From IMG/VR virus record IMGVR_UViG_3300043427_002668: a stretch of 64,000 bases of DNA, one strand, 5' to 3'. Below the pieces are notes generated by a model. That model made no database searches, was not told where the DNA came from, and saw only the letters and a list, made by a program, of their open reading frames with translations. Shown here in pieces: positions 9,646 through 24,008 of this stretch. Origin of the DNA: a virus. Taxonomy: Duplodnaviria > Caudoviricetes. The position numbers and the translations under genes were made by a program. Position 1 is the stretch's first letter. Each line of letters starts with the position of its first letter.

Positions 9646-9681
9646 AAAGGGGGGACGCCTAAAGTGCCCTAGTAATGTAAG
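9646..9681 (+). promoter_or_regulatory. Repeated intergenic element, copy 1 of 13
   Basis: AAAGGGGGGACGCCTAAAGTGCCCTAGTAATGTAAG. Confidence 0.85.
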
Positions 9682-9692
9682 CACAACATTCA

Positions 9693-10088
9693 ATGGCAAC
9701 CCGCTCACGCATCGGTATTGAACTCGCTGATGGTTCTGTTCTCTCTGCATACCACCACTGGGATGGTTATCCCGAATGGTTGGGTCGCATCCTGAAGACG
9801 CACTACAATAGCAAAGAACTTGCTGCCGAACTGATTGATGGTGGTGATATGTCCTGTGCTTGGACTGATGAACGTTGGGATTTGAGTGCTGATGGATCTT
9901 ATGGACCTAACTATTACTCCTATCGTGGTCAGAATTGCCCTCCTCGCCTTGATGCTAACCTGATTGAGTATGTTGGTGATGCTGAAGAGTATGCTTATCT
10001 CTACACTTTGAAAGGTGAATGGGTGTGCTACGAACTTCACGAAACTCCTAAAATCGTTGAAATCCCCTCTGCTGCTCTTCACGTTTGA
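9693..10088 (+). CDS. Conserved phage hypothetical protein
   Basis: MATRSRIG...YHHWDGYPEWLG motif. Confidence 0.75.
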   Translation: MATRSRIGIELADGSVLSAYHHWDGYPEWLGRILKTHYNSKELAAELIDGGDMSCAWTDERWDLSADGSYGPNYYSYRGQNCPPRLDANLIEYVGDAEEYAYLYTLKGEWVCYELHETPKIVEIPSAALHV

Positions 10089-10090
10089 TT

Positions 10091-10249
10091 ATGAAACCAA
10101 AGTATCTTGCTGCTGGATTGATTGCTTTCTCTGCTGTGATTGGGTGGAATGTCTTTCTAGTTCAACGTGATGATGTGATGTATAAAGAATACTATCGTCG
10201 TCAAGCAATCGAGAACATTAAGCAACCAATTAGCAGTCAGATACGATGA
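10091..10249 (+). CDS. Small membrane protein (52 aa)
   Basis: MKPKYLAAGLIAFSAVIGWNVFLV... Confidence 0.55.
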   Translation: MKPKYLAAGLIAFSAVIGWNVFLVQRDDVMYKEYYRRQAIENIKQPISSQIR

Positions 10250-10377
10250 GTTTATCACTTGCAATCGCAATCTACTGTGCTATGATTGCTGTGGTCTCAT
10301 CACTTCTCACCTATTATTTCAAGGTGATGAGACCTAGAGAAGAAGAACAAATTAAAGGAGGAAAAACTTTTGATTGA
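10246..10377 (+). CDS. Small membrane protein (43 aa)
   Basis: MSLSLAIAIYCAMIAVVSSLLTYYF...; ATGA-coupled. Confidence 0.5.
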   Translation: MSLSLAIAIYCAMIAVVSSLLTYYFKVMRPREEEQIKGGKTFD

Positions 10378-10507
10378 TTATAACAAAGACCGCAAAGATC
10401 TTCAGATTGATAGGACTGCTGAAGATTTTTGTTCTTATATTGAAGAACTTGCATCTAAATATGAGGTCACTTGCGACTACATTTTAGAGGAGTTTCTCTT
10501 AGACTAA
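10370..10507 (+). CDS. Small acidic protein (TTG start)
   Basis: GGAGG RBS; ends ...EVTCDYILEEFLLD. Confidence 0.5.
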   Translation: MIDYNKDRKDLQIDRTAEDFCSYIEELASKYEVTCDYILEEFLLD

Positions 10508-10926
10508 TGAAACAATTACTTTGGGGAATTACATTCTCTTTACTTGCTACATCACTTCCAGTCAAAGCACAGCAAACAAACATTTATTCAGTTTGCACTA
10601 ACTATCAGGAGAACTATGCTCCTGGTTATTATGATGCTTATGGGAACTACGTTCAAGGAAATGTGAATACACAACGATATAACGTTCAATGTGGAACTGG
10701 AACGTATTATCGTCCAAATGGTGGAAATGTGTATCAATCTCCAGTTGCTGCTCCGATAGCACAACCTGGATATGGTAGGGGTTATTGTTCTCCCGCAAGA
10801 ACAACTCTTGGTGGATTGCTTGGTGGTGGTATTGGTGCAGCAGTATCTAAAAAAGACGCTTGGAGTTGGGCTATTCCTCTAGGTGCAGTTCTTGGTGCTG
10901 GTGCTGCTAATGCTACCTGCTATTGA
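10507..10926 (+). CDS. Signal-peptide protein with C-terminal glycine zipper
   Basis: MKQLLWGITFSLLATSLPVKA; LGGLLGGGIGAAV...LGAVLGAGAA. Confidence 0.7.
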   Translation: MKQLLWGITFSLLATSLPVKAQQTNIYSVCTNYQENYAPGYYDAYGNYVQGNVNTQRYNVQCGTGTYYRPNGGNVYQSPVAAPIAQPGYGRGYCSPARTTLGGLLGGGIGAAVSKKDAWSWAIPLGAVLGAGAANATCY

Positions 10927-10974
10927 CTTAAACCAAACTAACGATTAAACTAAAGGAGTAATTTACAAAGACAA

Positions 10975-11205
10975 ATGAAGTATCTTTATATCGTTGATTA
11001 CTGGGTTCCTTTTCCAGCATCTGAAGGTGGTGGTCTTATCAATCTGATTGCTGAATCTGATACTGAGGCATTTGAACTTCTTATTGTAGAAAAGCAGTTT
11101 GATGATCGTTATACTGATCGGATTATGGAACGAGTAGTGAACTCCCAGAAGTTTGCTCTTGTTGATGAATATGAATCTGGTATTCTTGAAGCATTTACGA
11201 CCTGA
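10975..11205 (+). CDS. Conserved cyanophage hypothetical protein
   Basis: YLYIVDYWVPFPASEGGG; AAGGAG upstream. Confidence 0.7.
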   Translation: MKYLYIVDYWVPFPASEGGGLINLIAESDTEAFELLIVEKQFDDRYTDRIMERVVNSQKFALVDEYESGILEAFTT

Positions 11206-11366
11206 TGAGTAATCCTGAAATCAACCGTCTTGCATTTGATTTGAAGCAACAATACCAAGACCGCATCGAAGATTTGCAACAGAAGATTACAGAACAGCAG
11301 AAGGAGATCCTAAAACTCCAAGAACAGATTAAACTGCTCTCATACGACAAATACTACGATTGTTGA
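11205..11366 (+). CDS. Hypothetical coiled-coil protein (53 aa)
   Basis: TGATG-coupled; Q/E/K-rich heptads. Confidence 0.55.
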   Translation: MSNPEINRLAFDLKQQYQDRIEDLQQKITEQQKEILKLQEQIKLLSYDKYYDC

Positions 11367-11665
11367 TGAAACTCTCAGTTGATCTCATTCCTCAGTTTAC
11401 ACACAAAGCACCAGAAGGTTATAGTTATGAAGTTGAAGAGTTCAAACGTGGTATCTTTTCTATTTGGTTGTGCTGCAACCGCAAGTTTGATTACAATATG
11501 GGGAAACCTACCAGGACCATCTGGGGATTTTACAACTACAAAAAGTGTGAGTTCTATAGTCCTGTAAATAGTAGTACAGTTGGTAAAGTTGTGAATTTCA
11601 AAGATACGCGAGACTACACGGCTATGCCTCTTAACCTTAATCCTCTTATGTCCGCATTTGTATGA
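11366..11665 (+). CDS. Conserved cyanophage hypothetical protein
   Basis: F.HKAPEGYSYEVEEFK...IWGFY. Confidence 0.7.
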   Translation: MKLSVDLIPQFTHKAPEGYSYEVEEFKRGIFSIWLCCNRKFDYNMGKPTRTIWGFYNYKKCEFYSPVNSSTVGKVVNFKDTRDYTAMPLNLNPLMSAFV

Positions 11666-11841
11666 TTTTCTCTGAAGGTACTGCAGTCATCTATAAAGAA
11701 ATGTGTGGTGTGATTGATTTTGTATGCGACCATTATGTTGTTATACAACTTCCCGCACATCCTAGTCGCAATGCTCCACGATTGTTAGTCTTCAGAGAAT
11801 ATTATAAACAAATTGCAATACAGAAAGCATCAACTAAATGA
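11662..11841 (+). CDS. Hypothetical protein (59 aa)
   Basis: ATGA-coupled on both sides. Confidence 0.55.
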   Translation: MIFSEGTAVIYKEMCGVIDFVCDHYVVIQLPAHPSRNAPRLLVFREYYKQIAIQKASTK

Positions 11842-12053
11842 AACAAAAGAAAACTATCTGGAGACTGATTGCAAAGTCTTTAGGTGAAAAAGCAGGTAAA
11901 AATGATAATGAGGCGGATAGGATTGCTCTTATCCGTCTTTTGATGTTTCTTTCTATTTTTATTACAAACGCATTTATTATCTTTAATGCTGTAAGAACTC
12001 ATATTGTACCTGCAGAACCTAAACCAGTGAAGTGTATCATTCTAAATACATAA
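11838..12053 (+). CDS. Small membrane protein
   Basis: WRLIAKSLGEKAG...ADRIALIR followed by a TM helix. Confidence 0.7.
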   Translation: MKQKKTIWRLIAKSLGEKAGKNDNEADRIALIRLLMFLSIFITNAFIIFNAVRTHIVPAEPKPVKCIILNT

Positions 12054-12068
12054 AAACATACTAGACAA

Positions 12069-12272
12069 ATGCTAACTTTTAGAGAGTTTGTTGAAAAATT
12101 GCAAGAACAAGATCCTCATATGACGCCAACATCTTTTAATGTTGCAAAAGCAAGAGAACAAGCAAAAGGTGGTATTCAACATAGAAAACACGTTCACGGA
12201 GAACTTGCAAGAGAAGCAGGAGCACAACAATCAGCAAAAAATGCAAGATTAAAAGCAATTATGTCTCGTTGA
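12069..12272 (+). CDS. Putative internal head protein (capsid-targeting-like N-terminus)
   Basis: MLTFREFVEKLQE; late-promoter-like CTAAATA at 12042-12048. Confidence 0.55.
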   Translation: MLTFREFVEKLQEQDPHMTPTSFNVAKAREQAKGGIQHRKHVHGELAREAGAQQSAKNARLKAIMSR

Positions 12273-12276
12273 TAAG

Positions 12277-12311
12277 AAAGGGGGACGCCCAAAGTGTTCT
12301 AATAATGTAAG
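12277..12311 (+). promoter_or_regulatory. Repeated intergenic element, copy 2
   Basis: AAAGGGGGACGCCCAAAGTGTTCTAATAATGTAAG. Confidence 0.85.
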
Positions 12312-12322
12312 CACCCATTAAG

Positions 12323-12460
12323 ATGGATCCTTTCAACGACAACTATCAAATCGAAGAGGAAGGTTACTTCAACTTTGTCGAAGAAGACGACATCTTTATC
12401 GACGAAGAGTTTGATGATAAATCCTTCGCTGAATACATTAACGCTACCTACGACTTCTGA
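12323..12460 (+). CDS. Highly acidic, aromatic-rich 45-aa protein (not in ORF track)
   Basis: MDPFNDNYQIEEEGYFNFVEEDDIFIDEEFDDKSFAEYINATYDF; first ORF after element copy 2. Confidence 0.6.
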   Translation: MDPFNDNYQIEEEGYFNFVEEDDIFIDEEFDDKSFAEYINATYDF

Positions 12461-12462
12461 TT

Positions 12463-12675
12463 ATGACCGAAACTGTGAACGTGCTGCCTCATCTGAACGA
12501 ACTGAAAGAGATCTGGCGCAAGCAAGATTTTACCTTCACCAAACAACAACAGGAAGAATATGATATTCTACTTGCTGCCCGTCGTGAACGTGTAAAGTAT
12601 TTCTATGATAATGACTTGGTGTGTAAGATTAGCAAGTCCGCTCAAGATAAACTTCGTGATGCTGCAGATAACTAA
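12463..12675 (+). CDS. Hypothetical protein
   Basis: 70-aa ORF. Confidence 0.65.
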   Translation: MTETVNVLPHLNELKEIWRKQDFTFTKQQQEEYDILLAARRERVKYFYDNDLVCKISKSAQDKLRDAADN

Positions 12676-12702
12676 ATAATAAAAAAGACTGTTTAGATAC
12701 CA

Positions 12703-13293
12703 ATGAGAACCTTTCAGGAATTTGTTTTGATTGCTGAAGCATCTTATGATGCTAGTGTAATGAGTTCTTCTCAAATCCGTAAAACTGGAGAAGGTGGAAG
12801 AATTGGTGCAGAACGTAAGAAATCTGCTCCTGAAAGGCGTCGTATGAAAGCAGTCGGCGGTGGTAAGATGGAACCCGTTGATTACAAACCACGCAAAGAT
12901 ATTGGATCTCAAAGACAAGCATCCACAAGAGTTCAACAACCAGAAAAAGAGCGTGGAAGTGCTGAAGTAAAGCAATCTTATGCTGAAAAGGTAAAGGCAG
13001 AACGTAGAGCAGCAGCAAAAGCAAGAGCAGCAGCAAAGAAAGGTGGTGGAGAAGCACCAGCAGCAAAACCAAAGGCAAAAGATGTAGCAAAAACTGCATC
13101 TAAACTTCTTTCAACTAAGAAACCAGAAGCACAAGCACATCCTGATTACAAACCACAAAAAGCATCAGGACTTTCTACACAAGAAAGAAAAGCACTTTAC
13201 AAGAAAGGTGAAAGAAAACTGAGAGATCTTGTTCTACAATCAACTGGTAAGAAATCAGAGAAAGAACTCAAGCACAAATACACTTCTAAATAA
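12703..13293 (+). CDS. Putative internal head protein, Lys/Ala/Arg-rich
   Basis: MRTFQEFVLIAE resembles the T4 IP capsid-targeting sequence; CTAAATA at 12672-12678. Confidence 0.6.
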   Translation: MRTFQEFVLIAEASYDASVMSSSQIRKTGEGGRIGAERKKSAPERRRMKAVGGGKMEPVDYKPRKDIGSQRQASTRVQQPEKERGSAEVKQSYAEKVKAERRAAAKARAAAKKGGGEAPAAKPKAKDVAKTASKLLSTKKPEAQAHPDYKPQKASGLSTQERKALYKKGERKLRDLVLQSTGKKSEKELKHKYTSK

Positions 13294-13317
13294 TCAACAC
13301 TTACTTGAAACTTTATT

Positions 13318-13632
13318 ATGGCTACTTGGAGAGCAGAAGTATTTGTTAACTCACAAGTCGGTAGGATTACGACTGAAGTTGAAGCAGCAACTATTAGTGG
13401 AGCAAAACAGCAGATTTATGCTAAGCACGGTGATGTTCAGCAGATTACAAATTTGAGAGAAGTTCGCTCCAATGGTGGAGGTTCTTCATTCAGTTCTGGA
13501 GATACTGAAGGACTTGTATGGTTAGCAGGAATTGGATTTATTCTTTACTTATTCGTAACTTACTGGTATATTGCTATTCCTGTTTCCCTTGTCCTTGGTA
13601 TTCTCATCATAATGGGAATGTCGGGTGATTGA
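13318..13632 (+). CDS. Membrane protein
   Basis: Two C-terminal hydrophobic segments. Confidence 0.65.
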   Translation: MATWRAEVFVNSQVGRITTEVEAATISGAKQQIYAKHGDVQQITNLREVRSNGGGSSFSSGDTEGLVWLAGIGFILYLFVTYWYIAIPVSLVLGILIIMGMSGD

Positions 13633-13666
13633 AAGGGGGGACGCCTAAACTGTCCTAGTATTAGAT
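13632..13666 (+). promoter_or_regulatory. Repeated intergenic element, copy 3
   Basis: AAAGGGGGGACGCCTAAACTGTCCTAGTATTAGAT. Confidence 0.85.
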
Positions 13667-13667
13667 A

Positions 13668-14909
13668 ATGCAACTTATGAACATTCAACTTCGCCCTCAT
13701 CAGGAACGTGGTGTTGCTGCTATGCAACAGCATAACAAAGGTCAGATCATTGTTCCTACTGGTGGTGGAAAGACTCTCAAGATGATCTATGATGCTCTGC
13801 GTGAGTTCCAGTCTGAAACTCCTCAGACCATTGTTGTAGTCGCTCCGCGTATTCTGCTTGCAGAGCAACTGTCTGCTGAGTTTCTGGAGTTTATCACTAA
13901 CGCTAAAGTCTTCCACGTTCATAGTGGTGAGACGCATCACGAATCTTCTACTCGTCCGCGTGAGATTTACAACTGGGTTAATGCTAATGCCGACAATCAT
14001 CGCCTGATTGTAACCACCTACAACTCTCTGTCGCGTCTTCAAGTCGCAGAGATTGATGTGGATACGATCTACTTTGACGAAGCACATAACAGCGTTCAGC
14101 GTCACTTTTTCCCTGCTACAGAGCACTTCTCTGCTAACGCAAAACGTGCGTACTTCTTCACTGCTACCCCCAAACATTCGCTTGCTGTGGGTAAACCAGG
14201 AATGAATGATTCTGCAGTCTACGGTCAAGTGATCTGCAAAGTTCCTGCTCCTGAGCTAGTTGAAGGTGGATACATTGTGCCTCCTAAAGTTATCGTCAAG
14301 CAACTGCCGATGGTAACTGGTAAGCAGACCAACTATGATCGGGACGCTGAGAATCTGCTGGAAACGATTGATGAGAACAGCGTCGGTAAGATCCTGATCT
14401 GTTCTAAGGCAACCAAGCAAATCGTTGCTCTGGTGTCTGAAACTGATTTCTGCTCCGAACTAGAGAATCGCGGTTACTCTTGGATGTATATCACTGCCAA
14501 GACTGGTGCTGTGATTGATGGTCGCAAAGTGAACCGTGAGGTATTCTTTGACACCCTATCTGCCTGGGGTAAGGATAACGACAAAAAGTTTGTTGTTCTA
14601 CACCATAGCATCCTCGCTGAGGGTATCAACGTCAGCGGTCTGGAAGCGGTACTCTTCCTCCGTAATATGGACTTCATTGGTATCAGTCAGACCATCGGAC
14701 GTTGCATCCGTCTGCATCACGATGATGCGAAAGGTATGCGCGATGGACGTATTGAACCTGGCAACCTCACTCAGTATAGCAAATCGTTTGGTCTGGTTTG
14801 TGTGCCTGTGTACTCTAAGGTTGGTATCAGCACTGCTCGCGCAGTTCAGTCTGTTGTTGATACTATTTTTCAGAAGGGGGAACCTGCCATCAGTGTGGTT
14901 CGCAGGTGA
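13668..14909 (+). CDS. SF2 (DEAH/ResIII-like) helicase
   Basis: LRPHQ, PTGGGKT, FDEAH, TATP, LAEGINV, QTIGRCIR. Confidence 0.92.
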   Translation: MQLMNIQLRPHQERGVAAMQQHNKGQIIVPTGGGKTLKMIYDALREFQSETPQTIVVVAPRILLAEQLSAEFLEFITNAKVFHVHSGETHHESSTRPREIYNWVNANADNHRLIVTTYNSLSRLQVAEIDVDTIYFDEAHNSVQRHFFPATEHFSANAKRAYFFTATPKHSLAVGKPGMNDSAVYGQVICKVPAPELVEGGYIVPPKVIVKQLPMVTGKQTNYDRDAENLLETIDENSVGKILICSKATKQIVALVSETDFCSELENRGYSWMYITAKTGAVIDGRKVNREVFFDTLSAWGKDNDKKFVVLHHSILAEGINVSGLEAVLFLRNMDFIGISQTIGRCIRLHHDDAKGMRDGRIEPGNLTQYSKSFGLVCVPVYSKVGISTARAVQSVVDTIFQKGEPAISVVRR

Positions 14910-14932
14910 GTCTCACTGAGAACCCAGTCTCC

Positions 14933-14958
14933 ATCAGGGTGCAAACCCTGATTTTTTT
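14933..14958 (+). terminator. Rho-independent terminator
   Basis: ATCAGGGT-GCAA-ACCCTGAT followed by T6. Confidence 0.8.
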
Positions 14959-15030
14959 GCATTTCTACTGCAGACGTGCTATGATAGGTCTGCTGCAACC
15001 AAATCAACGATTTTTTGGAAAGTATAACAA

Positions 15031-15205: not shown

Positions 15206-15240
15206 AAAGGGGGGACGCCTAAAATGTTCCAATAGTGTAT
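15206..15240 (+). promoter_or_regulatory. Repeated intergenic element, copy 4
   Basis: AAAGGGGGGACGCCTAAAATGTTCCAATAGTGTAT. Confidence 0.8.
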
Positions 15241-15251
15241 CAACACAAATC

Positions 15252-15854
15252 ATGACAGTTCTTTCTATTCTCAATGAAACTATTGAGGAAGCAGTTGAAA
15301 ATAGCAATCAAGAATGGAAAGGTTCTCCATTTGAACCTCTGACTCTTATCACTAATGATGAGCGTGGTCGTTGGGGTGAAAAGTTCCTCTTCCGTATCAT
15401 TACTGAGGTTGCTAAGATTGAATCTAAGTGGGATGGTGATTGTAACACCCGCCCTGAAGATGGTGGCACTTATGACATCCTCGTCAATCTGATTAAGAAA
15501 CTCAAGAATGAAGTAAAGACTGCATTTTCGTGTGCTAAGAGTGCCAACTGGCAACATGAGAACATCTATGCTAAATCTGTCTGGGACAAATTGACGTTTG
15601 TTGATGTAGACTATGATAAGATCTACATTACTGTCCTGACTCCTGCTAACATGGAGAAACTCTTTCAGAATGAGAAAGATCCTATTCTTGGAAAGAAAGC
15701 AACTCTCCGTGAATCTCAAGAGGATAAGTGGAAGTTTGATTTCTCCCGTGTTACTGTTGCAAATGCTATCAAAGCAGGTTATACTTTCTGTTATGACGTA
15801 AATAACCCTGACGATGCTGGGGTTGTCTCTCACCTTGTTAAGCACTTTGGTTGA
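15252..15854 (+). CDS. Putative PD-(D/E)xK restriction endonuclease
   Basis: ERGRWGE helix, TYDILV...NEVKTA catalytic-type motif; stop overlaps the methyltransferase start. Confidence 0.6.
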   Translation: MTVLSILNETIEEAVENSNQEWKGSPFEPLTLITNDERGRWGEKFLFRIITEVAKIESKWDGDCNTRPEDGGTYDILVNLIKKLKNEVKTAFSCAKSANWQHENIYAKSVWDKLTFVDVDYDKIYITVLTPANMEKLFQNEKDPILGKKATLRESQEDKWKFDFSRVTVANAIKAGYTFCYDVNNPDDAGVVSHLVKHFG

Positions 15855-16930
15855 TGAAAAACATCTACGACTTCTTTCTTCCGATCTATCAAAAGTTTGG
15901 TATTGATACTGTGTGTCAAGAACTGTACCTGCATAAAGGTACAGTGAACCGTTGGATTGAGAAGAAAGAAGTTCCTCCACAATACTATTTTGATTTGTGT
16001 AGGTTAGCAGATGTGCCAGTTCTTTACTCTAACTTTACTGAAAAGCAAAAGGATCAGTTCTTTACTGATCCAAATACTGCTGAGTATTGTTACAATCAAA
16101 CTCTCAAGATTCTAGGTGATCTTGGTGTAGATTTGCGTGAATACACCTTTATTGAACCATCAGCAGGTGATGGTAGTTTCTATAACATTCTACCCATCTA
16201 TCAGCGTGTTGGTGTTGACATCGAACCTCAATGTGATGGTGTAGAGAAACAAGACTTTTTAAGGTGGAAACCTGATACTCAAAAGAACATTTGTATCGGC
16301 AATCCACCATTTGGACTCAGAGGACATTTAGCCCTTAAGTTCATCAATCATGCCGCACAGTTCTCTGATTTCGTATGCTTCATTCTACCGCAGTTGTTTG
16401 ATAGCAACGGCAAAGGTAGTTGTAAATCAAGAGTGAAAGGTATGAATCTGATTCACACTGAAGTTGTGGATTCTTCATTTCACTATCCTGATGGCAAAAC
16501 TGTGACCGTAAATGTAGTCTTTCAGATCTGGGCGAAGGACTACAAAATCGAGGAGGAAGTTGTTGATCTGACTAACATCATCAAACTCTATTCTCTCTCT
16601 GATGGTGGCACACCAGGAAGCACACGAAACAAACAACATCTGTACTCTTGTGACTATTATTTGCCATCAACGTGTTTCGGTGAAGAGAGTGTAAAAGTCT
16701 ATGATGACTTTGAGAATCTACCACATCGTAGAGGTTATGGAATTGTAGCACTTGCAGACAAAGATGTGATTGATAATGTGATGCAATCAATTAACTGGTC
16801 TGATGTAGCATTTGCGTCTACAAATGGTGCATTTAATCTTCGATTCGACATCATACAGAAAACTATTTGGAAGCACCTTCCAGATTCTCTCAAGCAATAT
16901 CAAAATCCTTTATTGTCTGCGTTGAACTAA
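15854..16930 (+). CDS. N6-adenine DNA methyltransferase (gamma-type motif order) with N-terminal HTH-like extension
   Basis: KDQFFT (motif X), FIEPSAGDGSF (motif I), IGNPPFG (motif IV), C-terminal TRD-like region. Confidence 0.9.
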   Translation: MKNIYDFFLPIYQKFGIDTVCQELYLHKGTVNRWIEKKEVPPQYYFDLCRLADVPVLYSNFTEKQKDQFFTDPNTAEYCYNQTLKILGDLGVDLREYTFIEPSAGDGSFYNILPIYQRVGVDIEPQCDGVEKQDFLRWKPDTQKNICIGNPPFGLRGHLALKFINHAAQFSDFVCFILPQLFDSNGKGSCKSRVKGMNLIHTEVVDSSFHYPDGKTVTVNVVFQIWAKDYKIEEEVVDLTNIIKLYSLSDGGTPGSTRNKQHLYSCDYYLPSTCFGEESVKVYDDFENLPHRRGYGIVALADKDVIDNVMQSINWSDVAFASTNGAFNLRFDIIQKTIWKHLPDSLKQYQNPLLSALN

Positions 16931-16964
16931 AGGGGGGACTCCCAAAGTGTCCTAGTAGTGTAAG
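16929..16964 (+). promoter_or_regulatory. Repeated intergenic element, copy 5
   Basis: AAAGGGGGGACTCCCAAAGTGTCCTAGTAGTGTAAG. Confidence 0.85.
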
Positions 16965-16977
16965 ACGCATCCAATCT

Positions 16978-17232
16978 ATGCCTCGCGCTCGCAAGCAAAC
17001 TGCAAATGTTGAAGTTGTTGCTAACGAAGTGAAAGTTCCTGAGGTTCTCATCACTCGCCAGCAATATCTGCAAGACATTAAAGTTCGCTGGCAAATCCAT
17101 CAGTATGAAGTCAACAAACTTCGTGAAGATGTGAGTAAAGTTACTCAAACTGTTTTTCCTTATGTGAAGAACGCAATGGATTATGTTCTCGATCAATATC
17201 AGCAAATCCGCTCCAAATACGCCACTAATTGA
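16978..17232 (+). CDS. Hypothetical protein (84 aa)
   Basis: Start moved to ATG 16978 after element copy 5; MPRARKQTANVEVV... Confidence 0.7.
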   Translation: MPRARKQTANVEVVANEVKVPEVLITRQQYLQDIKVRWQIHQYEVNKLREDVSKVTQTVFPYVKNAMDYVLDQYQQIRSKYATN

Positions 17233-17242: not shown

Positions 17243-17268
17243 GGGAACTCAATGAGTTCCCTTTTTTT
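17243..17268 (+). terminator. Rho-independent terminator
   Basis: GGGAACTC-AAT-GAGTTCCC followed by T7. Confidence 0.85.
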
Positions 17269-17276: not shown

Positions 17277-17310
17277 AAAGGGGGGACGCCCAAAGTGTCC
17301 TAGTAGTATG
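17277..17310 (+). promoter_or_regulatory. Repeated intergenic element, copy 6 (includes the ATG)
   Basis: AAAGGGGGGACGCCCAAAGTGTCCTAGTAGTATG. Confidence 0.85.
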
Positions 17311-18204
17311 AAGAACACTCACCTGCAACATCCTGAAGATTCTATTCTCACGGGCGATCTGTCTGTGCTGGATTGGTTTGTAACTGCTGGCGATCTGTCT
17401 GTAAAGATTGATGGCGCTCCTGCAGTAGTTTTTGGTATCAATCCTGCGACTGGTAACTTCTTCGTGGGGACCAAAAGTGTCTTCAATAAAGTTAAAATCA
17501 AAATCAACGAATCGCATCAAGATATTGATGCAAATCACGAAGGTAATGTAGCAAACATTCTTCACGCTTGCTTTGACTATCTGCCGCGTGTAAATGCTAT
17601 CATTCAAGCAGACTTTATCGGGTTTGGTGGTAGTGATGAGTACAAACCAAATACTATCACCTACAAGTTTCCTGATGTGGTGAATGAGGAGATTATTCTT
17701 GCTCCTCATACTGTCTACATCGCAGAGAATGATTTGCGTGATGCAGTAGCGTATCCGATGAAGTTCATCATCACCGATACACATTACTGCAAGTTTGTGA
17801 AACCTGATGCTTACATCGTTCATCAGCAAGAATCGTTCGCTGATGTAAAAGAAGTTTGTGCGTTTGCCCGCCAAATGTCTACGATGTGTGAGTTTGTTTC
17901 TAACAAGGAAGCAGCAAAGATTACCAAGAAATTGAATGATTTTATTCGTGCAGGAGAGCAGATTACTGTAGATAATGTGAATGACTTTGATTGTGACCCT
18001 AACCTCATCCGTTTGTGGTCGCTGGTGAAGTCTATCAAAGATGATTGCTTGTTCCTCTGCCGCAATGATGGTCCTGCTGCTTATATCGGATACAATCGTA
18101 TTGATGCTGAAGGATACGTTATGACGAATGAGTTTGGAATGTTTAAGTTGGTAAATCGTGAATGTTTCTCCCGTGCTAACTTCAATCTTGCAAAGAGTTG
18201 GTAA
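17308..18204 (+). CDS. ATP-dependent ligase/nucleotidyltransferase-fold protein (DUF6267-like)
   Basis: KIDG (motif I), EGYV (motif IV), FKLVN (motif V). Confidence 0.6.
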   Translation: MKNTHLQHPEDSILTGDLSVLDWFVTAGDLSVKIDGAPAVVFGINPATGNFFVGTKSVFNKVKIKINESHQDIDANHEGNVANILHACFDYLPRVNAIIQADFIGFGGSDEYKPNTITYKFPDVVNEEIILAPHTVYIAENDLRDAVAYPMKFIITDTHYCKFVKPDAYIVHQQESFADVKEVCAFARQMSTMCEFVSNKEAAKITKKLNDFIRAGEQITVDNVNDFDCDPNLIRLWSLVKSIKDDCLFLCRNDGPAAYIGYNRIDAEGYVMTNEFGMFKLVNRECFSRANFNLAKSW

Positions 18205-18235
18205 GGGGGGACGCTCAAAGTGTCCTAGTAGTATG
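18203..18235 (+). promoter_or_regulatory. Repeated intergenic element, copy 7 (includes the ATG)
   Basis: AAGGGGGGACGCTCAAAGTGTCCTAGTAGTATG. Confidence 0.85.
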
Positions 18236-18427
18236 AGGACCAACGATAAAATGATTAACCAAATCGCTGAAATGATTGTGGATGCTGCTAATGATCCTCG
18301 CACTGCAGATAATATCCGCGAAATGCACAAACATCCGCAAGGTGCAGAAACTCTGCGACTGATTGTGCGTGATAATGTAGCAGGTGCTGCTGACGTAGTT
18401 GTTAATGCTCTCTGGAACAATCTCTGA
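18233..18427 (+). CDS. Hypothetical protein (64 aa)
   Basis: MRTNDKMINQIAEMIVDAAND... Confidence 0.6.
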   Translation: MRTNDKMINQIAEMIVDAANDPRTADNIREMHKHPQGAETLRLIVRDNVAGAADVVVNALWNNL

Positions 18428-18788: not shown

Positions 18789-18790
18789 TT

Positions 18791-19232: not shown

Positions 19233-19378
19233 CTGTACCAAATCTCACAAGTCAGCACATAGATTTTAATGAATGGTTGAAAGAATGTCCTGTTGAATGG
19301 TTCAAGAGTGCAAAACCAAGTGTAAATGGTTCTGCAACTTATGAGTTCTTTTTTGATGCTGTGACTGAGGAAGAATGA
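19229..19378 (+). CDS. Hypothetical protein (49 aa)
   Basis: ATGA-coupled on both sides. Confidence 0.55.
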   Translation: MTVPNLTSQHIDFNEWLKECPVEWFKSAKPSVNGSATYEFFFDAVTEEE

Positions 19379-19638
19379 CTTACTCAAATCTCTCCAAGAT
19401 TAAACCTAAACTTCGCACACAAGGTAGGGTTTCTGGGAACTTCGGAAAAAATCGTGTTAAGGCAGGTTCTACACTCAACGACATCGGAATGAGCTCTAAA
19501 GAGAGTATCAAATGCACCACACAAGATGAATATCTCAATCGTCTTTATGTTGCGTTCGATAGTAGCACAGATGATAAACTGCGTCGGTTCATTTATGCTG
19601 AGATCCGCAAGATCCACATTCAGAGAGGCACTTGGTAG
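19375..19638 (+). CDS. Conserved cyanophage hypothetical protein, basic
   Basis: MTYSNLSKIKPKLRTQGRVSGNFG... Confidence 0.7.
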   Translation: MTYSNLSKIKPKLRTQGRVSGNFGKNRVKAGSTLNDIGMSSKESIKCTTQDEYLNRLYVAFDSSTDDKLRRFIYAEIRKIHIQRGTW

Positions 19639-19646
19639 AGTGATGC

Positions 19647-19682
19647 AAAGGGGGGACGCGCAAAGTGTCCTAGTAGTATAAG
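19647..19682 (+). promoter_or_regulatory. Repeated intergenic element, copy 8
   Basis: AAAGGGGGGACGCGCAAAGTGTCCTAGTAGTATAAG. Confidence 0.85.
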
Positions 19683-19696
19683 CACACACTCAACCG

Positions 19697-19927
19697 ATGA
19701 TCGTTTCTGAAATCTACTCCTACCATACAAATTGGAAGGAAGGTAAAGTCAACCAAATGTGGATCGAACAGTCTGGTGATGAGAACAAAGGTTATTCTTT
19801 CGTCGCTGTAGCACACAATCCCCGCAATGGTAAGACGATGGAAATGTCTAACCCTCGCACATCTTACCGTGAAACTCTAGAATGGGTTCGCGGTTGGTGT
19901 GGTACTTTCTGTGTTCTTCCTGCCTGA
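19697..19927 (+). CDS. Hypothetical protein
   Basis: 76-aa ORF after element copy 8. Confidence 0.65.
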   Translation: MIVSEIYSYHTNWKEGKVNQMWIEQSGDENKGYSFVAVAHNPRNGKTMEMSNPRTSYRETLEWVRGWCGTFCVLPA

Positions 19928-19933
19928 TTGATT

Positions 19934-20113
19934 ATGAAAGACGAAGAACTTCTAAAACTTGCTTCTCATTTTCTTGCAATTCATCCTATTGATGAAAACA
20001 ATCCAGAAAACCTCTTGAAGTTTGCCCGAGCACTTTACGAAGAAGGTTATAGTGACGGTTATGATGTTGGTGAAGAAATTGGATACGATAGAGGAACTCT
20101 TGATGGTGAATGA
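19934..20113 (+). CDS. Hypothetical protein
   Basis: MKDEELLKLA...YEEGYSDGYDVGEEIGYDRG. Confidence 0.6.
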   Translation: MKDEELLKLASHFLAIHPIDENNPENLLKFARALYEEGYSDGYDVGEEIGYDRGTLDGE

Positions 20114-20119
20114 ACTGAA

Positions 20120-20281
20120 ATGAAAAACTATCGCGTGATGGTTGAAACTAAAGATGGATGTTGTACTATTTGGTATGAGAAATCCAACGCAAAGACCGCA
20201 GACAAACTTATCCTAAATCGCGTCTATAATCAACTCTGCGGTCTCAACATTAAAGAAATCTCTGTTATTCCTTCTGTATGA
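20120..20281 (+). CDS. Hypothetical protein (53 aa)
   Basis: MKNYRVMVETKDG... Confidence 0.55.
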   Translation: MKNYRVMVETKDGCCTIWYEKSNAKTADKLILNRVYNQLCGLNIKEISVIPSV

Positions 20282-20421
20282 AATACGAAGTTAAACTCTA
20301 TCAAGGCGGCAAAGTCTTCACTGAGGAAGTGTATGCTAGCACACCCAAAGATGCGCGTGAAACTGCACTCGCTCGCAACCCAACTTGTAAGGTAGTTGGA
20401 GTGAACGCAAAGTTTAACTGA
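20278..20421 (+). CDS. Hypothetical protein (47 aa)
   Basis: MKYEVKLYQGGKVFTEEVYA...; ATGA-coupled. Confidence 0.55.
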   Translation: MKYEVKLYQGGKVFTEEVYASTPKDARETALARNPTCKVVGVNAKFN

Positions 20422-20424
20422 TAG

Positions 20425-20458
20425 AAAGGGGGGACGCCCAAAGTGTCCTAGTAGTATG
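20425..20458 (+). promoter_or_regulatory. Repeated intergenic element, copy 9 (identical to copy 6; includes the ATG)
   Basis: AAAGGGGGGACGCCCAAAGTGTCCTAGTAGTATG. Confidence 0.85.
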
Positions 20459-20626
20459 ACTAACACTTTCACCGTCCGTTTCGATTCCAATGCTCTCGAT
20501 TCTCCCGAGTATATTGGACCTTTCTACTCTGAAGAAGACGCTCAAGATTATGCTGATGATCGCAATGGTTCGTTAGCACTCTCTGGTATTCCTTCCTCTG
20601 TTGCTTGTTACTCTGTCGTTGACTGA
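20456..20626 (+). CDS. Hypothetical protein (56 aa)
   Basis: MTNTFTVRFDSNALDSPEYIGPFYSEEDAQDYA... Confidence 0.6.
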   Translation: MTNTFTVRFDSNALDSPEYIGPFYSEEDAQDYADDRNGSLALSGIPSSVACYSVVD

Positions 20627-20629
20627 TTT

Positions 20630-20764
20630 ATGAAAATTGTTCTTCTGTTTACTACACTTTTCTTTGGTATTCAGTTTGGTGCAAATGCTATCGCAACTGT
20701 GAACCAACAACAAGAACAACGCGCAGAACAATTCTGCAACATTGATCCTAATTTCTGCAAATGA
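20630..20764 (+). CDS. Small membrane/secreted protein (44 aa)
   Basis: MKIVLLFTTLFFGIQFGANAIA...FCNIDPNFCK. Confidence 0.5.
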   Translation: MKIVLLFTTLFFGIQFGANAIATVNQQQEQRAEQFCNIDPNFCK

Positions 20765-20913
20765 GCCGCAGAAGTTTAACACTCAAACCACCGTGCAAAG
20801 TGAAAACAATTCTTCTGATTTTCACCGTTGCGTTTCTACTCTCACCAGGAGTTCGCAACATCACCTCCAACACATTACACACCGTCGCTGATATTATCCA
20901 ACCACAACAATGA
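20761..20913 (+). CDS. Small membrane protein (50 aa)
   Basis: ATGA-coupled; ILLIFTVAFLL. Confidence 0.45.
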   Translation: MSRRSLTLKPPCKVKTILLIFTVAFLLSPGVRNITSNTLHTVADIIQPQQ

Positions 20914-21050
20914 TTGAAACTGATTTCTTCATTCTCTCACAAGAACAGTATCAGCAAACTCTCCAAGATGCTGCAATCGAAGGTGTATCAATCGACTATT
21001 ATTTGCTGGAGTTTTGTACTGTAGAAGGAGAGTGGGTAGAAGTTGAATGA
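20910..21050 (+). CDS. Small acidic protein (46 aa)
   Basis: ...GVSIDYYLLEF...; stop overlaps element copy 10. Confidence 0.55.
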   Translation: MIETDFFILSQEQYQQTLQDAAIEGVSIDYYLLEFCTVEGEWVEVE

Positions 21051-21083
21051 AAGGGGGGACGTGCAAAGTGTCCTAGTAGTATG
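21050..21083 (+). promoter_or_regulatory. Repeated intergenic element, copy 10 (includes the ATG)
   Basis: AAAGGGGGGACGTGCAAAGTGTCCTAGTAGTATG. Confidence 0.85.
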
Positions 21084-21368
21084 ACAACCAACGACCTCTT
21101 CGATTCCATCAAACTCACGGAGCAACTTGCTCTGGAAAACTATCAACAACGCAATGGTGTTGTTGACTATTGCCTCGATGGAGTTTGCCATCACTACTTC
21201 GCAAAGTATGATTGGAATGGTAATCGTGACGGTGAGATTTGCCTCACCTGTAAAGTTTCCAAGACTGTAAAAGGACAACTCCGTTATACTTTCCAAGTTG
21301 ACGGTAAGCGTATCGCAGAGAAAAACATCTGGTCGAAGTTTAACTCTCTGGGTGCATTTCGTAACTGA
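21081..21368 (+). CDS. Hypothetical protein
   Basis: 95-aa ORF filling the space between element copies 10 and 11. Confidence 0.7.
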   Translation: MTTNDLFDSIKLTEQLALENYQQRNGVVDYCLDGVCHHYFAKYDWNGNRDGEICLTCKVSKTVKGQLRYTFQVDGKRIAEKNIWSKFNSLGAFRN

Positions 21369-21371
21369 ATC

Positions 21372-21406
21372 AAAGGGGGGACGCCCAAAGTGTCCCAGTA
21401 GTATAG
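21372..21406 (+). promoter_or_regulatory. Repeated intergenic element, copy 11
   Basis: AAAGGGGGGACGCCCAAAGTGTCCCAGTAGTATAG. Confidence 0.85.
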
Positions 21407-21427
21407 ATCACAATCCCCAACCACAAA

Positions 21428-21742
21428 ATGCGTAAGATCGAAGCACAAATGAACCGCGCAATCTCCCAAGAGATTGATTGGAAAAAGGACAACACTCAAG
21501 TCATCAACATTGAAGGTGTAAGTTTCGTCTATCTGTATAGCAATCTGATTGCGATGGTAGGTGATACTTGGCTGGAACTGTTCGATGGCGGACATCAAAC
21601 TGCAACAACTAAAAGCAGAATTAACGCTATTCTTTCTTCCCACGGTACAGGAGTTGAATATGTCTTTCAGAAGAAAGGTGAGTGGTTTCTTAACTGTGAA
21701 GGAGGTCCAGTTCCTTTCAACAATGGAATGAAACTCAACTAA
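21428..21742 (+). CDS. Conserved phage hypothetical protein
   Basis: MRKIEAQM...TATTKSRINAIL motif. Confidence 0.7.
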   Translation: MRKIEAQMNRAISQEIDWKKDNTQVINIEGVSFVYLYSNLIAMVGDTWLELFDGGHQTATTKSRINAILSSHGTGVEYVFQKKGEWFLNCEGGPVPFNNGMKLN

Positions 21743-22232
21743 GTTTTTCTAAAATCTTGTAACCTTTGTGATGATTTACCTTTGTTAATGTCTTATGAAG
21801 ATTTGACCTATTCAAGTTATTTTCTTCGCACCATTTAGCAAGGTTTTTTATCACAAAAGTTTCATTGGTTTCTATGTGTAAAATCTTCCATTCTGCCGCT
21901 TTGTTTCTACCAATGTTGTCTCTTGAAAGTTCACAGTTTTGTTTATGAGTTACCCACTCTAAATTATCTAAACTGTTGTTTGTTGGGTTATCATCTCTAT
22001 GGTGAACATCTGATAGATTATGTGGATTAGGTAAGTAAGTTTCTGCTACTAATCTATGAACTGCTCTCAACTTTTGATTATACAACCCGACTTGTATTCT
22101 CACTCTTGCATAACCTCTTTCATCCACACTTTCTTTTAGTTTGCGAGGTGATTTGTAGTTCTTTCCTGTACTATAAATGCTCCCATCTTTCGACACTAAA
22201 ATGTTATTGTAAAGAGGATGCTCTTTCATCAT
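21735..22232 (-). CDS. Free-standing HNH homing endonuclease (NUMOD4-HNH type)
   Basis: VSKDG, VHRLVAETYL, VHHRDDNPTNNSLDNLEWVT..QN; late promoter AATAAATA on the minus strand at 22252-22259. Confidence 0.9.
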   Translation of the reverse strand: MMKEHPLYNNILVSKDGSIYSTGKNYKSPRKLKESVDERGYARVRIQVGLYNQKLRAVHRLVAETYLPNPHNLSDVHHRDDNPTNNSLDNLEWVTHKQNCELSRDNIGRNKAAEWKILHIETNETFVIKNLAKWCEENNLNRSNLHKTLTKVNHHKGYKILEKLS

Positions 22233-22276
22233 TAAATACCTAACTTTGTAGTATTTATTATACCACATCTCCACAA

Positions 22277-22498
22277 ATGACTGACACTCAAAAACTCCAA
22301 TTCCTTCTTCTAAAACTTAAAGAAACCGCACATAGTAAGCATTGTTATGAAGCGTATGGTGATGATTACTCACCTTCAGAAAGTGGTAGTTATGATGATG
22401 CTTTTGATGCAGGATTTGAGTATGGTGAAATCATATTTGCTCGTGAGTTGCTTCAACAACTAAACCTCCAAATTCAAATCTTTCCTCACTTGAAATGA
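22277..22498 (+). CDS. Hypothetical protein
   Basis: 73-aa ORF. Confidence 0.65.
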   Translation: MTDTQKLQFLLLKLKETAHSKHCYEAYGDDYSPSESGSYDDAFDAGFEYGEIIFARELLQQLNLQIQIFPHLK

Positions 22499-22695
22499 TG
22501 ACTGAATCTCAAATCCTTCAACTTCGTTTTCTTTGTAGTGATGTGATTTTCGATTTTGAGTTTACACAATTCCTGGTTGATAATCCACACGATAGAGACA
22601 AGATCAAACAAAAAGCAGAACGGTACATTAACAAACTTCAATCAATTCTAGATGATGCCTATGTCCCTGATTCTCAAATGTCTCTCCCGTGCTGA
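22495..22695 (+). CDS. Hypothetical protein
   Basis: 66-aa ORF, ATGA-coupled. Confidence 0.55.
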   Translation: MMTESQILQLRFLCSDVIFDFEFTQFLVDNPHDRDKIKQKAERYINKLQSILDDAYVPDSQMSLPC

Positions 22696-22834
22696 AGAGT
22701 TAGCAAGTGAAATCAATGGTGATTTGTTCTATGTACCTGATGAAGACGTGCAACAACTCATCAACAAACTCACTGAAGATAATGTAGAAGAGATTGCATC
22801 AGAACTCGCAGATTTAGCACACTTTTTTAACTAA
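22652..22834 (+). CDS. Hypothetical protein, acidic
   Basis: AEELASEINGDLFYVPDED...; start uncertain. Confidence 0.55.
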   Translation: MMPMSLILKCLSRAEELASEINGDLFYVPDEDVQQLINKLTEDNVEEIASELADLAHFFN

Positions 22835-22932
22835 TTCAAGATAAAGAGGAAGGGAGTTTGCCTCTAGTAAGTAAAGAAAGTGACTTCCGTAGAGTATAGA
22901 TAATTTCCAATAAGTTAGGTGGTTGGGTGTAT

Positions 22933-22963
22933 AGAGAGGGACTGGTAATCCCTCTCTTTTTTT
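22933..22963 (+). terminator. Rho-independent terminator
   Basis: AGAGAGGGA-CTGGTAA-TCCCTCTCT followed by a T-run. Confidence 0.85.
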
Positions 22964-23069
22964 ATGTTTAGAAATCAAATGTATTGTGGTTAAATTATAA
23001 TTAAATCAATTAAAAATGTTAATTTAAATATAAACGTTCGATCAATCTCTCTTGTCATTTGTGTGTCTG

Positions 23070-23131
23070 GACCTTGTAACTTATAGTCATTTAAATGCTC
23101 TCAGACCTTGTAACTTATAGTCATTTAAATG
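23070..23131. repeat. Two perfect 28-bp direct repeats (23070-23097, 23104-23131)
   Basis: GACCTTGTAACTTATAGTCATTTAAATG x2, period 34. Confidence 0.95.
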
Positions 23132-23158
23132 TCTCTGGGGGTCGTTATCTTTGCGTGC

Positions 23159-23187
23159 ATTATATCAGCACTCCTCCAAAATGTCTA
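23159..23187 (-). promoter_or_regulatory. Leftward sigma70 promoter
   Basis: Minus strand TAGACA-17 nt-TATAAT with extended TG; flanked by the 8-bp inverted repeat TGGGGGTC/GACCCCCA. Confidence 0.7.
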
Positions 23188-23262
23188 GACCCCCAACGTC
23201 ACAAAATCCCCACAATCCCCGCGCAGAATCCCCCGGAGCGCCCCTAAATACTCTCCAGGTAC

Positions 23263-23291
23263 TTGACACCTACCTCAGAGTATTATAGAAT
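23263..23291 (+). promoter_or_regulatory. Rightward sigma70 promoter
   Basis: TTGACA-17 nt-TAGAAT; AAGGAG RBS and ATG 23319 downstream. Confidence 0.8.
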
Positions 23292-23318
23292 GATTCCATA
23301 ACTCAAAGGAGCGTACTT

Positions 23319-23492
23319 ATGTCAGTTGCGTATCATCAGGCACAGAAGCAGCGTTATAGGATCACTCTGGAAATGAACGTACTGAGTGATTTCGATCCTC
23401 ATCAAATTGATTGGGAGAAGCTATTCAAACTCGAACCATCTGAGCGTGTGGAAGCATACGTTGAGGATCTCGATTGCCCTTCTAAGTGGTAG
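23319..23492 (+). CDS. Conserved cyanophage hypothetical protein (57 aa, not in ORF track)
   Basis: MSVAYHQAQKQRYRITLE...DFDPHQIDWEKLF. Confidence 0.7.
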   Translation: MSVAYHQAQKQRYRITLEMNVLSDFDPHQIDWEKLFKLEPSERVEAYVEDLDCPSKW

Positions 23493-23503
23493 AAACGCAC
23501 TTT

Positions 23504-23555
23504 TAGTTTTGTCCCAAAACTTATACATATTATGGGGTATTTTGGGACAAAACTA
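23504..23555. repeat. Perfect 16-bp inverted repeat with a 20-nt spacer
   Basis: TAGTTTTGTCCCAAAA ... TTTTGGGACAAAACTA. Confidence 0.9.
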
Positions 23556-23722
23556 TGAGACCGAAGAATTACACTTTTCTGGGTACGACAGAGAGAATGC
23601 GCGTACCTTATGTGAAGCAAATGAGTGCGATCTTAAATGAGTTAAATCGTATCGCAGAGTTAGGTCACGATCCGACAGACTATCTGGAGGAGTTTATAGA
23701 ACGTCTGCAGGTTGTTGAATGA
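23555..23722 (+). CDS. Hypothetical protein (55 aa)
   Basis: MRPKNYTFLGTTERMRVPYVKQM...; stop overlaps element copy 12. Confidence 0.5.
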   Translation: MRPKNYTFLGTTERMRVPYVKQMSAILNELNRIAELGHDPTDYLEEFIERLQVVE

Positions 23723-23755
23723 AAGGGGGGACGTTGAAAGTGTCCCAGTAGTATG
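23722..23755 (+). promoter_or_regulatory. Repeated intergenic element, copy 12 (includes the ATG)
   Basis: AAAGGGGGGACGTTGAAAGTGTCCCAGTAGTATG. Confidence 0.85.
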
Positions 23756-23965
23756 AGCGCAACCGACACGTCCTACACTTCTCCCCACACTGGTAAAGTG
23801 TACCAGGTGATGACAGAAACCCGTAAGGATTACACCGTCTACAACTTCATCGAAGACGGTAAGATTATCACCAAATCGTTTCAGAATGACCCCAAGTATC
23901 TTGCGGGTTTGTTTGGTGAAATCGAAGGCATTTATGCGCCTTGGAGTACATCACCCCGCGACTGA
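23753..23965 (+). CDS. Hypothetical protein
   Basis: 70-aa ORF between element copies 12 and 13. Confidence 0.65.
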   Translation: MSATDTSYTSPHTGKVYQVMTETRKDYTVYNFIEDGKIITKSFQNDPKYLAGLFGEIEGIYAPWSTSPRD

Positions 23966-23972
23966 GTTACTA

Positions 23973-24008
23973 AAAGGGGGGACGTGCAAAGTGTCCCAGT
24001 AGTATAAG
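23973..24008 (+). promoter_or_regulatory. Repeated intergenic element, copy 13
   Basis: AAAGGGGGGACGTGCAAAGTGTCCCAGTAGTATAAG. Confidence 0.85.

Follow-up and report, generated by a model that had tools for sequence, protein, structure and literature searches.

The early genes of phage T4 have strong sigma-70 promoters, in which a -35 and a -10 are combined with an UP-like element, and the early mRNAs carry leaders. In the T4-like cyanophages Syn9 and P-TIM40, Doron et al. reportedly found in 2016 that a non-host-like element controls the early genes and that host-like promoters drive the middle genes; the early element is also said to be abundant and conserved among T4-like cyanophages. Short repeated promoters that double as sites of gene shuffling are known as the promoter early stem-loops (PeSLs) of the T4-type phages RB49/phi1, T4/PST and KVP40/nt-1 (PMC2839356, PMC4122927). 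Here we analyze a 64 kb stretch of viral DNA (IMG/VR record IMGVR_UViG_3300043427_002668, below called the window) from an uncultured freshwater T4-like cyanomyovirus, in which 13 copies of a 35-40 bp element stand between small genes. We propose, with a probability of roughly 65%, that this is a promoter-type element heading the units of the early region in a large clade of T4-like cyanophages (Kyanoviridae), with exchange of gene units at its copies. The 13 repeats are most likely this phage's version of a control element common to that clade.

The element works like a PeSL, although an atypical one. Like PeSLs, its copies are short, repeated regulatory elements that are intergenic in a hyperplastic, early-type region and co-oriented with small open reading frames (ORFs); indels and replacements between relatives end in them, as is also the case here; a G-run/C-run stem can sit within the promoter; and their sequence is lineage-specific. 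PeSLs are in addition associated with mini-circles, which arise through exchange between adjacent elements. Unlike PeSLs, the element has neither a near-consensus TTGACA-N17-TATAAT nor an AT-rich upstream part. A -10-like TATAGT or TAGTRT is present, the -35 position is taken by a G-run or another lineage-specific GC-rich sequence, and a generic sigma-70 scan did not pick out the copies. It also differs in having no terminator function, in lacking the stem-loop in several lineages, in having an invariant cross-lineage core of 16 nucleotides (nt) together with a built-in start codon, and in that most copies precede conserved genes, while PeSLs precede ORFans. The T4 early region offers a similar picture of many co-oriented promoters for small early genes in hyperplastic regions (PMC2839356), with the differences that the cyanophage element has no conserved -35 and that its start codon directly follows the -10-like stretch. 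Halovirus HF2 has short intergenic repeats along the genome that carry promoters (PMC8707807), and to that extent they are alike; HF2 is an archaeal virus whose AT-rich motifs differ in sequence and in transcription machinery.

We numbered the element from the first G of GGGGGAC and searched the window with the pattern GGGGGAC-N4-AAAGTGTCC, allowing up to three mismatches and taking the chance level from shuffles. Exactly 13 sites were found, all on the + strand, compared with 0.19 expected and a shuffle maximum of 2. They start at 9650, 12280, 13636, 15210, 16933, 17281, 18206, 19651, 20429, 21054, 21376, 23726 and 23977. A preliminary description of this DNA had listed the same 13 co-oriented sites, counted from an AAAG 3-4 nt upstream, as in the following list of the array.

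9646..9683 (+), copy 1, head of the 11-gene unit g34-g44 (9693-12272)
12276..12313 (+), copy 2, head of g45-g48
13632..13669 (+), copy 3, head of the helicase gene g49 and of g50
13668-14909, g49, helicase with ResIII, DEAD and Helicase_C domains
15206..15243 (+), copy 4, left end of the inserted unit
15252..16930 (+), g51 and g52, cargo of the inserted unit; g51 (200 aa) is of unknown function and g52 (358 aa) matches phrog_5172 and phrog_799 (DNA methyltransferase family)
16929..16966 (+), copy 5, right end of the inserted unit and head of g53 (16978-17232)
17243..17268 (+), intrinsic terminator between g53 and copy 6, with an 8-bp GC-rich stem (17243-17261) and T7
17277..17314 (+), copy 6, built-in ATG at 17308, single-gene unit g54 (DUF6267, 17308-18204)
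18202..18239 (+), copy 7, built-in ATG at 18233, head of g55-g60, in which g56 is DUF7717
19647..19684 (+), copy 8, head of g61-g64
20425..20462 (+), copy 9, built-in ATG at 20456, head of g65-g68
21050..21087 (+), copy 10, built-in ATG at 21081, single-gene unit g69
21372..21409 (+), copy 11, head of g70 (Kyano_Gp96, 21428-21742)
23722..23759 (+), copy 12, built-in ATG at 23753, single-gene unit g77
23973..24010 (+), copy 13, head of g78 onward and last copy before the host-type sites at 24742-25319 and gp25 at 26999

Most of what the preliminary description had reported of these copies was borne out. Over 36 nt, copies 6 and 9 do not differ; the variable positions cluster at 8-11, after GGAC; the stop codon of the upstream gene lies 0-7 nt before the AAAG in 12 copies, with copy 6 standing behind the terminator (stem at 17243-17261 plus T-run) instead; and the next ATG follows 0-25 nt past each element, being built into it in copies 6, 7, 9, 10 and 12. 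The absence of copies from the structural region had also been claimed, with a position weight matrix scan proposed as a check. At a threshold of at least 12 bits, such a scan of both strands of the whole 64 kb found no copy beyond the 13 (which score 47-63), and a core-only scan of the same sequence with up to four mismatches gave no convincing additional copy; the structural part of the window is thus free of the element. The array occupies a block of small co-oriented genes and the helicase; the baseplate gene gp25 (26999) follows about 3 kb further on. The copies mark 13 of about 46 gene junctions, the remaining junctions being mostly overlapping or tightly coupled. Since the units between copies hold from 1 to 11 genes each, the earlier term gene cassettes is too narrow.

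Comparison with relatives divides the element into two parts. Its 3' core, AAAGTGTCCC-TATAGT-RTRAGCA, is nearly invariant (the window phage has TAGTAGT in the TATAGT stretch), and its 5' half, box A, which in the window phage reads AAAGGGGGGACG-N3, is lineage-specific. A logo built from 267 unique sites begins with the upstream stop codon and continues with AAG GGGGG A C G at -2 to 8, three variable bases, AAAGTGTCCC (box B) at 12-21, TATAGT at 22-27 and R T R A G C A at 28-34. Conservation is at least 90% at T24, A25, T27 and T29, with T27 reaching 99%, the purine at 28 is invariant, and the logo is flat upstream of -13. In its exact window-type form the pattern was found in 97 IMG/VR stretches, where a contig holds as many as 12 copies, all of them on one strand, and S-SM2 has 12 related copies with GGTC instead of GGAC. 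A search with the core alone (the exact 16-mer AAAGTGTCCCTATAGT) added at least 120 further IMG/VR stretches and found the core in the cultured phages S-SM2, SynMITS9220M01, S-B05, S-B43, RN05-S and RB11-B. The preliminary description had taken the repeats for a sequence-distinct system; they are not private to this phage, as the 3' half is a clade-wide core present in S-SM2 and SynMITS9220M01, for example.

At least 12 types of box A are attached to this core, such as CTGGGGCCTTC, TTACTCACCTCT, ATAGCTCACCTCC, CTTGGATCGTCC, CTGAAGCCTCT and GGGGGAGCCCCT; the types TTAC and AGCT are named for a short diagnostic motif. Copies on the same contig share their box A type in 91% of 1991 pairs, compared with 18% of different-contig pairs at the orthologous site before g54, a value near the background of 24%. 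Box A therefore belongs to the genome and not to the gene, and it is a clear example of a regulatory repeat under concerted evolution. Many box A types also hold short GC-rich palindromes (GGCC, GGATCC, GGGCCC, AGGCCT, AGCT) of the kind recognized by restriction and methylation systems (stretches L102-L197).

The placement of the element is as regular as its core. The complete genome of S-SM2 (190.8 kb) carries its 12 copies at 42.7-58.5 kb and that of SynMITS9220M01 (190.2 kb) carries 9 copies at 38.9-50.0 kb, all on the forward strand, so that in both complete relatives the copies are limited to one small-gene/helicase block of 11-16 kb. Sites on the opposite strand occur in just 3 of 187 core-carrying contigs and look spurious. 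Irrespective of box A type, the gene maps of about 190 related stretches share one backbone, in which an element (E) stands at each of the following points: E, g46, g47, E, helicase, E, g54 (DUF6267), E, g56 (DUF7717), and further on E, g61-g64, E, g65 onward, E, g69, E, g70 (Kyano_Gp96). Thus g46-47, the helicase gene g49, g54, g56, g61, g65, g69 and g70 are headed by an element across box A lineages. Because this backbone is independent of box A type, we conclude that the element is an old and stable head of conserved units and does more than wrap accessory genes. The preliminary description had proposed that it co-regulates accessory cargo; it does head co-oriented groups in an early-type hyperplastic region, but it stands mainly before conserved backbone genes.

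The window itself has a block at 93-9642 in which 33 close-packed, co-oriented small genes carry no copy, among them DUF4385 at 6454-6915 and a MazE-like C-terminus at 8688-9173. In S-SM2, unlike in this element-free block, the homologues of g22-g25 are headed by an element.

Gain, loss and rearrangement of genes at the element, as the preliminary description had supposed, can be read from three kinds of comparison. First, three related contigs (L049, L095 and L069) have g50, one element and g53 where the window has copy 4, g51, g52 and copy 5. They align to the end of g50, carry a single element with a TTAC-type box A and realign at the right half of copy 5 and g53, which places the crossover inside the element. 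This single element in place of g51-g52 shows that the methyltransferase-like pair (15206-16942) is an indel with a copy at either end. Second, the nucleotide identity of the window to its relatives shifts at copy 6, from 85% to 97%, and at copy 11, from 93% to 78%. Third, among 47 kinds of rearranged junction in the array region, 34 have a copy between both genes, compared with 13 of 46 junctions in the window (binomial p = 5e-10). In addition, otherwise uniform genomes contain single copies with a foreign box A, which travel together with the genes that follow them. In AGCT- or TTAC-type genomes, for instance, a window-type (GGGGGGACG) copy is accompanied by g57-g59-g60.

The preliminary description had also given each copy a GGAC/GTCC inverted repeat and imagined a dimeric phage protein as its reader. 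The inverted repeat is present in the window lineage and is longer than first reported, with 7 pairs (GGGACGC/GTGTCCY) around a 5-nt loop, but it is not a conserved feature of the element. Folded as RNA the hairpin reaches -9.8 kcal/mol, which is ordinary against shuffles (z = -1.4). Across 310 sites 91% of cells pair and all changes are one-sided; compensatory double changes were sought at every pair of these 310 sites and none was found. In the S-SM2 clade a T at position 6, giving GGTC, breaks pair 6-18 and is uncompensated, and in the TTAC and AGCT lineages box B has no complement (-2 to -3 kcal/mol), with the core and the ATG at 28-30 (ATG28) retained. As GGAC-N9-GTCC is not conserved across lineages, a dimeric reader of the palindrome is unsupported. 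We rejected the hairpin as the functional core of the element on the grounds that it shows no compensatory changes, a broken pair in the S-SM2 clade, absence from several lineages and an unexceptional energy. A terminator-like hairpin with a T-run lies upstream of only 8 of the 310 sites, so the terminator half of the PeSL model falls away as well, and scans with Rfam and for tRNAs gave no match. Of the PeSL-like reading as a whole, the heads of units and the exchange at copies stand, and the palindrome, the terminator half and the private sequence do not.

The reading frames that follow the element bear on where transcription starts. Of 650 unique sites, 260 have an ATG at positions 28-30, and in 236 of these 260 it opens an ORF of at least 40 codons. 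In a smaller first set the frame of ATG28 was open in 71 of 72 sites, compared with 2 and 21 for the other two frames. A second ATG in frame lies at 43 (84 sites), 46 (22) or 49 (18), 124 in total, out-of-frame ATGs are nearly absent, and positions 35-39 are nearly empty of start ATGs. At sites that lack ATG28, the first ATG of a long ORF is found at 43-49. Positions 28 and 30 are coupled, with ATG at 260 sites, GTA at 211, ATA at 92 and GTG at 19 (chi-square 237). ATG28 is the sole possible start for 106 ORFs of many families. In the case of g54, the N-terminus encoded from ATG28 (MKNTHLQHPED) aligns with the Syn9, P-SSM4, S-SRM01 and Bellamy homologues and meets position 1 of the Pfam DUF6267 profile. 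Moreover, a start site downstream of 28 would make copies 6, 10 and 12, which head single-gene units starting at ATG28, useless. Collectively the frame statistics, the ORFs with a sole start and these three copies argue that position 28 is in the mRNA, where the ATG resembles a 5'-terminal start codon. From this we infer a transcription start at positions 25-28, giving a leaderless or near-leaderless mRNA when 28-30 is ATG. We lean slightly towards a start at or before position 28; a start at 34-37 is a possible but doubtful option, and the remaining probability goes to the element being no promoter at all.

In the explanation that we favor, each copy would be the head of a transcription unit of the early region, with a start inside or directly after the TATAGT stretch, at 25-28, a span that ends in the invariant purine. 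Where 28-30 is ATG the mRNA would be leaderless or nearly so, and otherwise the start codon would come 15-20 nt later. Because the same 35-40 bp recur wherever two units meet, copies in one genome or in co-infecting relatives could recombine and thereby insert, delete, move and exchange whole units, and this recombination would also homogenize box A.

Several observations weigh against this explanation. The best -10-like hexamers, TATAGT at 22-27 and TAGTRT at 24-29, predict a start at about 34-37, past the built-in ATG, and a start at 25-28 would have no canonical sigma-70 -10 ahead of it, AAGTGT at 13-18 being the sole hexamer with A at -11 and T at -7 for such a start. S-SRM01 has TATACT-GTAAGCA before the same gene, 21 nt ahead of the ATG, as expected of an ordinary -10. 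The T7-type RNA polymerase domain PF00940 was not matched in S-SM2 or SynMITS9220M01, a negative that is weak as the controls were also silent; if these two relatives have no such polymerase, the host enzyme, perhaps with some factor, must read the element. Early timing is read from position and gene content only. In one metatranscriptome run (X25), which holds a small share of the stretch as contigs, contigs end or join at elements, as is expected from assembly at k = 31 anyway, and they are therefore uninformative on 5' ends. With respect to exchange, the preliminary description had proposed to look for joints between two copies, and metagenome contigs of one RNA run and of three DNA runs from freshwater or wetland do show them (16964>12321, 13653>24255, 16950>13686, 23997>13676, 23754>24009 and 19686>9692; 6 of the 10 listed joints with inserted letters are of this kind), but assembly at k = 31, as in Logan contigs, can create chimeras at 30-nt repeats. 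Relatives also differ by rearrangements in the element-free block g13-g33, and selection for intact transcription units could equally yield breakpoints at unit heads. Since g13-g33 shuffles in the absence of the element, we regard the element as a preferred but not required junction for shuffling.

The alternative that survives best, which we nevertheless consider unlikely, is an ordinary host sigma-70 early promoter. Here TATAGT or TAGTRT would be the -10, weak TTG- or CTG-like triplets of box A the -35, and the start would fall at about A34-A37; box B, lying in the spacer, would be the operator of a conserved repressor or activator, and genes with ATG28 would be read from upstream copies. 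TATAGT is a 5/6 match to the -10 consensus and includes three of the four positions conserved at 90% or more, the fourth being T29 of TAGTRT. Several box A types have CTGGGG, TTGGAT or CTGAAG 17 nt before TAGTRT, SynMITS9220M01 reads GTTACT-N17-TATAGT, C33-A34 is a typical -1/+1 pair, and a few sites have an ATG exactly at 34. A clear -10 (TGnTATAAT or TGnTATACT in three of four) also lies 21-24 nt before the homologous gene in S-SRM01, Syn9, P-SSM4 and ACG-2014f, and read-through from upstream copies is possible because terminators are rare. However, copies 6, 10 and 12 would be left with no gene to serve, and copy 6 stands behind a strong terminator. The in-frame rule, the avoidance of GTG at 28 and the bimodality of starts between 28 and 43 onward would be unexplained unless 28 is at the 5' end. 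In 10 of the 13 window copies positions 22-27 read AGTAGT, which loses the key A at -11, and the -35 region would be the least conserved part of the element despite similar hosts. Two other placements of promoter motifs were tried and rejected: an extracytoplasmic function (ECF) sigma-like AAC-N16-yGTC (TGTC or CGTC at 16-19, start at about 26-28), whose AAC moves by as much as 2 nt from one box A type to another and is missing from some, and a -35 in the upstream stop codon (TTGAnn at -10..-5 in the window), a position that we attribute to a stop-codon signal as TAA is as frequent as TGA across the family. Sigma-54 and T4 late-promoter readings failed on spacing.

More distant cyanophages have another layout. 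In Syn9, spacers of the early region open with AAGTGTCCAC-like decamers similar to box B, and the first 100 kb contain no 16-nt core within 2 mismatches. From the decamer it is about 29 nt to an extended -10 and about 66 nt to the ATG. The 110 nt upstream of the DUF6267 gene in Syn9 (L198), P-SSM4 (L203), ACG-2014f (L202) and S-SRM01 (L199) show a distinct promoter layout, consisting of a decamer AA(C/G)TG(G/T)C(A/C)CAC that resembles box B of the element, about 29-31 nt (often a C-run), TGnTATAAT or TATACT, 21-24 nt and the ATG. In Bellamy (L200, 385-403) the ATG of the DUF6267 gene is 6 nt past a TATCTT hexamer, the classic leaderless -10 spacing.

A role in RNA, as a signal for translation initiation or processing or as a translational operator inside long early transcripts, is in our view improbable. 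The G-run might be a Shine-Dalgarno sequence, the hairpin might bring the G-run near AUG28, or a RegA-type operator might lie over the AUG; in T4, genes 38 and 25 have a split ribosome-binding site and RegA has a translational operator. AAGGGGG could pair with the anti-Shine-Dalgarno, the 7-bp hairpin would put 6 nt between its stem and AUG28, positions 9, 16 and 19-21 vary by C/T transitions opposite G, and contigs of RNA runs span whole elements. These points are countered by the retention of the core and ATG28 in the TTAC and AGCT lineages, where the G-run and the hairpin are missing, by the one-sided changes and the broken pair 6-18 described above, by a start codon that lies at least 15 nt further on at 60% of sites, by the flat logo beyond -13, which leaves no conserved upstream promoter for a long transcript, and by the absence of an Rfam match. 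A dedicated site-specific recombination site, resembling integron attC and read by a dimeric phage recombinase, is very improbable: units are gained, lost and moved precisely at the element and the window lineage has an inverted repeat, but the palindrome is unconserved, no integrase or recombinase domain was found among the 20 larger ORFs scanned, most copies are fixed before conserved genes across lineages, the core holds a start codon and a -10-like sequence, crossover points vary within the element as in homologous exchange, and attC sites, which come with a linked integrase, are imperfect palindromes about 57-141 bp long with single-strand folding, compared with 35-40 bp here.

Megablast matches to cultured phages are to T4-like cyanomyoviruses only, at about 72-78% identity (S-SM2, S-SCSM1, Bellamy and SynMITS9220M01), and the runs covering most of the stretch are freshwater metagenomes. 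Just beyond the array, host-type TTGACA-N17/18 promoter-like sites at 24742, 25062 and 25291 form a cluster (24742-25319) that possibly marks a switch to a host-type (middle) promoter class. Such sites adjoining the array fit two promoter classes, and a non-canonical element in a small-gene/helicase block with host-type promoters next to it resembles the arrangement reported for the element of Doron et al. A hairpin with a 13-bp stem lies at 24729-24759, after the last copy and before the conserved block g82-g87. G+C falls from about 0.40 at 1-26 kb, the region of small genes, to about 0.29-0.31 at 26-48 kb, the baseplate and structural region, and position ~26000 is a sharp compositional border between the modules. 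The array also holds, between g70 and g73, a gene for an HNH endonuclease (PF13392, E = 6e-10) on the - strand at 21738-22274; it looks like a mobile gene inserted separately and has no copies of the element at its borders. Beside it, at 22696-23385, are a terminator (22933-22957) and near-consensus sigma-70 promoter-like sites at 23187 and 23022 (-) and at 23263 (+).

To our knowledge T4-like cyanophages do not have the T4 middle-transcription proteins MotA and AsiA, and the timing of their early genes is poorly understood. The element gives this problem a testable anatomy, with an invariant 16-nt core in hundreds of marine and freshwater cyanophage contigs and a start codon at a fixed position that predicts leaderless early mRNAs. 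Box A, uniform in each genome but replaced between lineages, can be used as a marker of recent exchange of units between phage lineages. The results extend modular shuffling of the PeSL type to cyanophages, for which it had earlier been judged unlikely in the case of S-PM2 (PMC4503421). The cultured carriers S-SM2, SynMITS9220M01, S-B05 and S-B43 make these predictions directly testable. A bolder proposal, which we put forward tentatively and think rather unlikely, is that the core is a class of promoter outside canonical sigma-70 recognition that starts exactly at purine 28, so that many early mRNAs of cyanomyoviruses are leaderless, and that box A is the site of a co-evolving specificity factor, virion-borne or made early. 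If so, each lineage would have a private early-transcription code, and units with a foreign box A would be visible as recent transfers.

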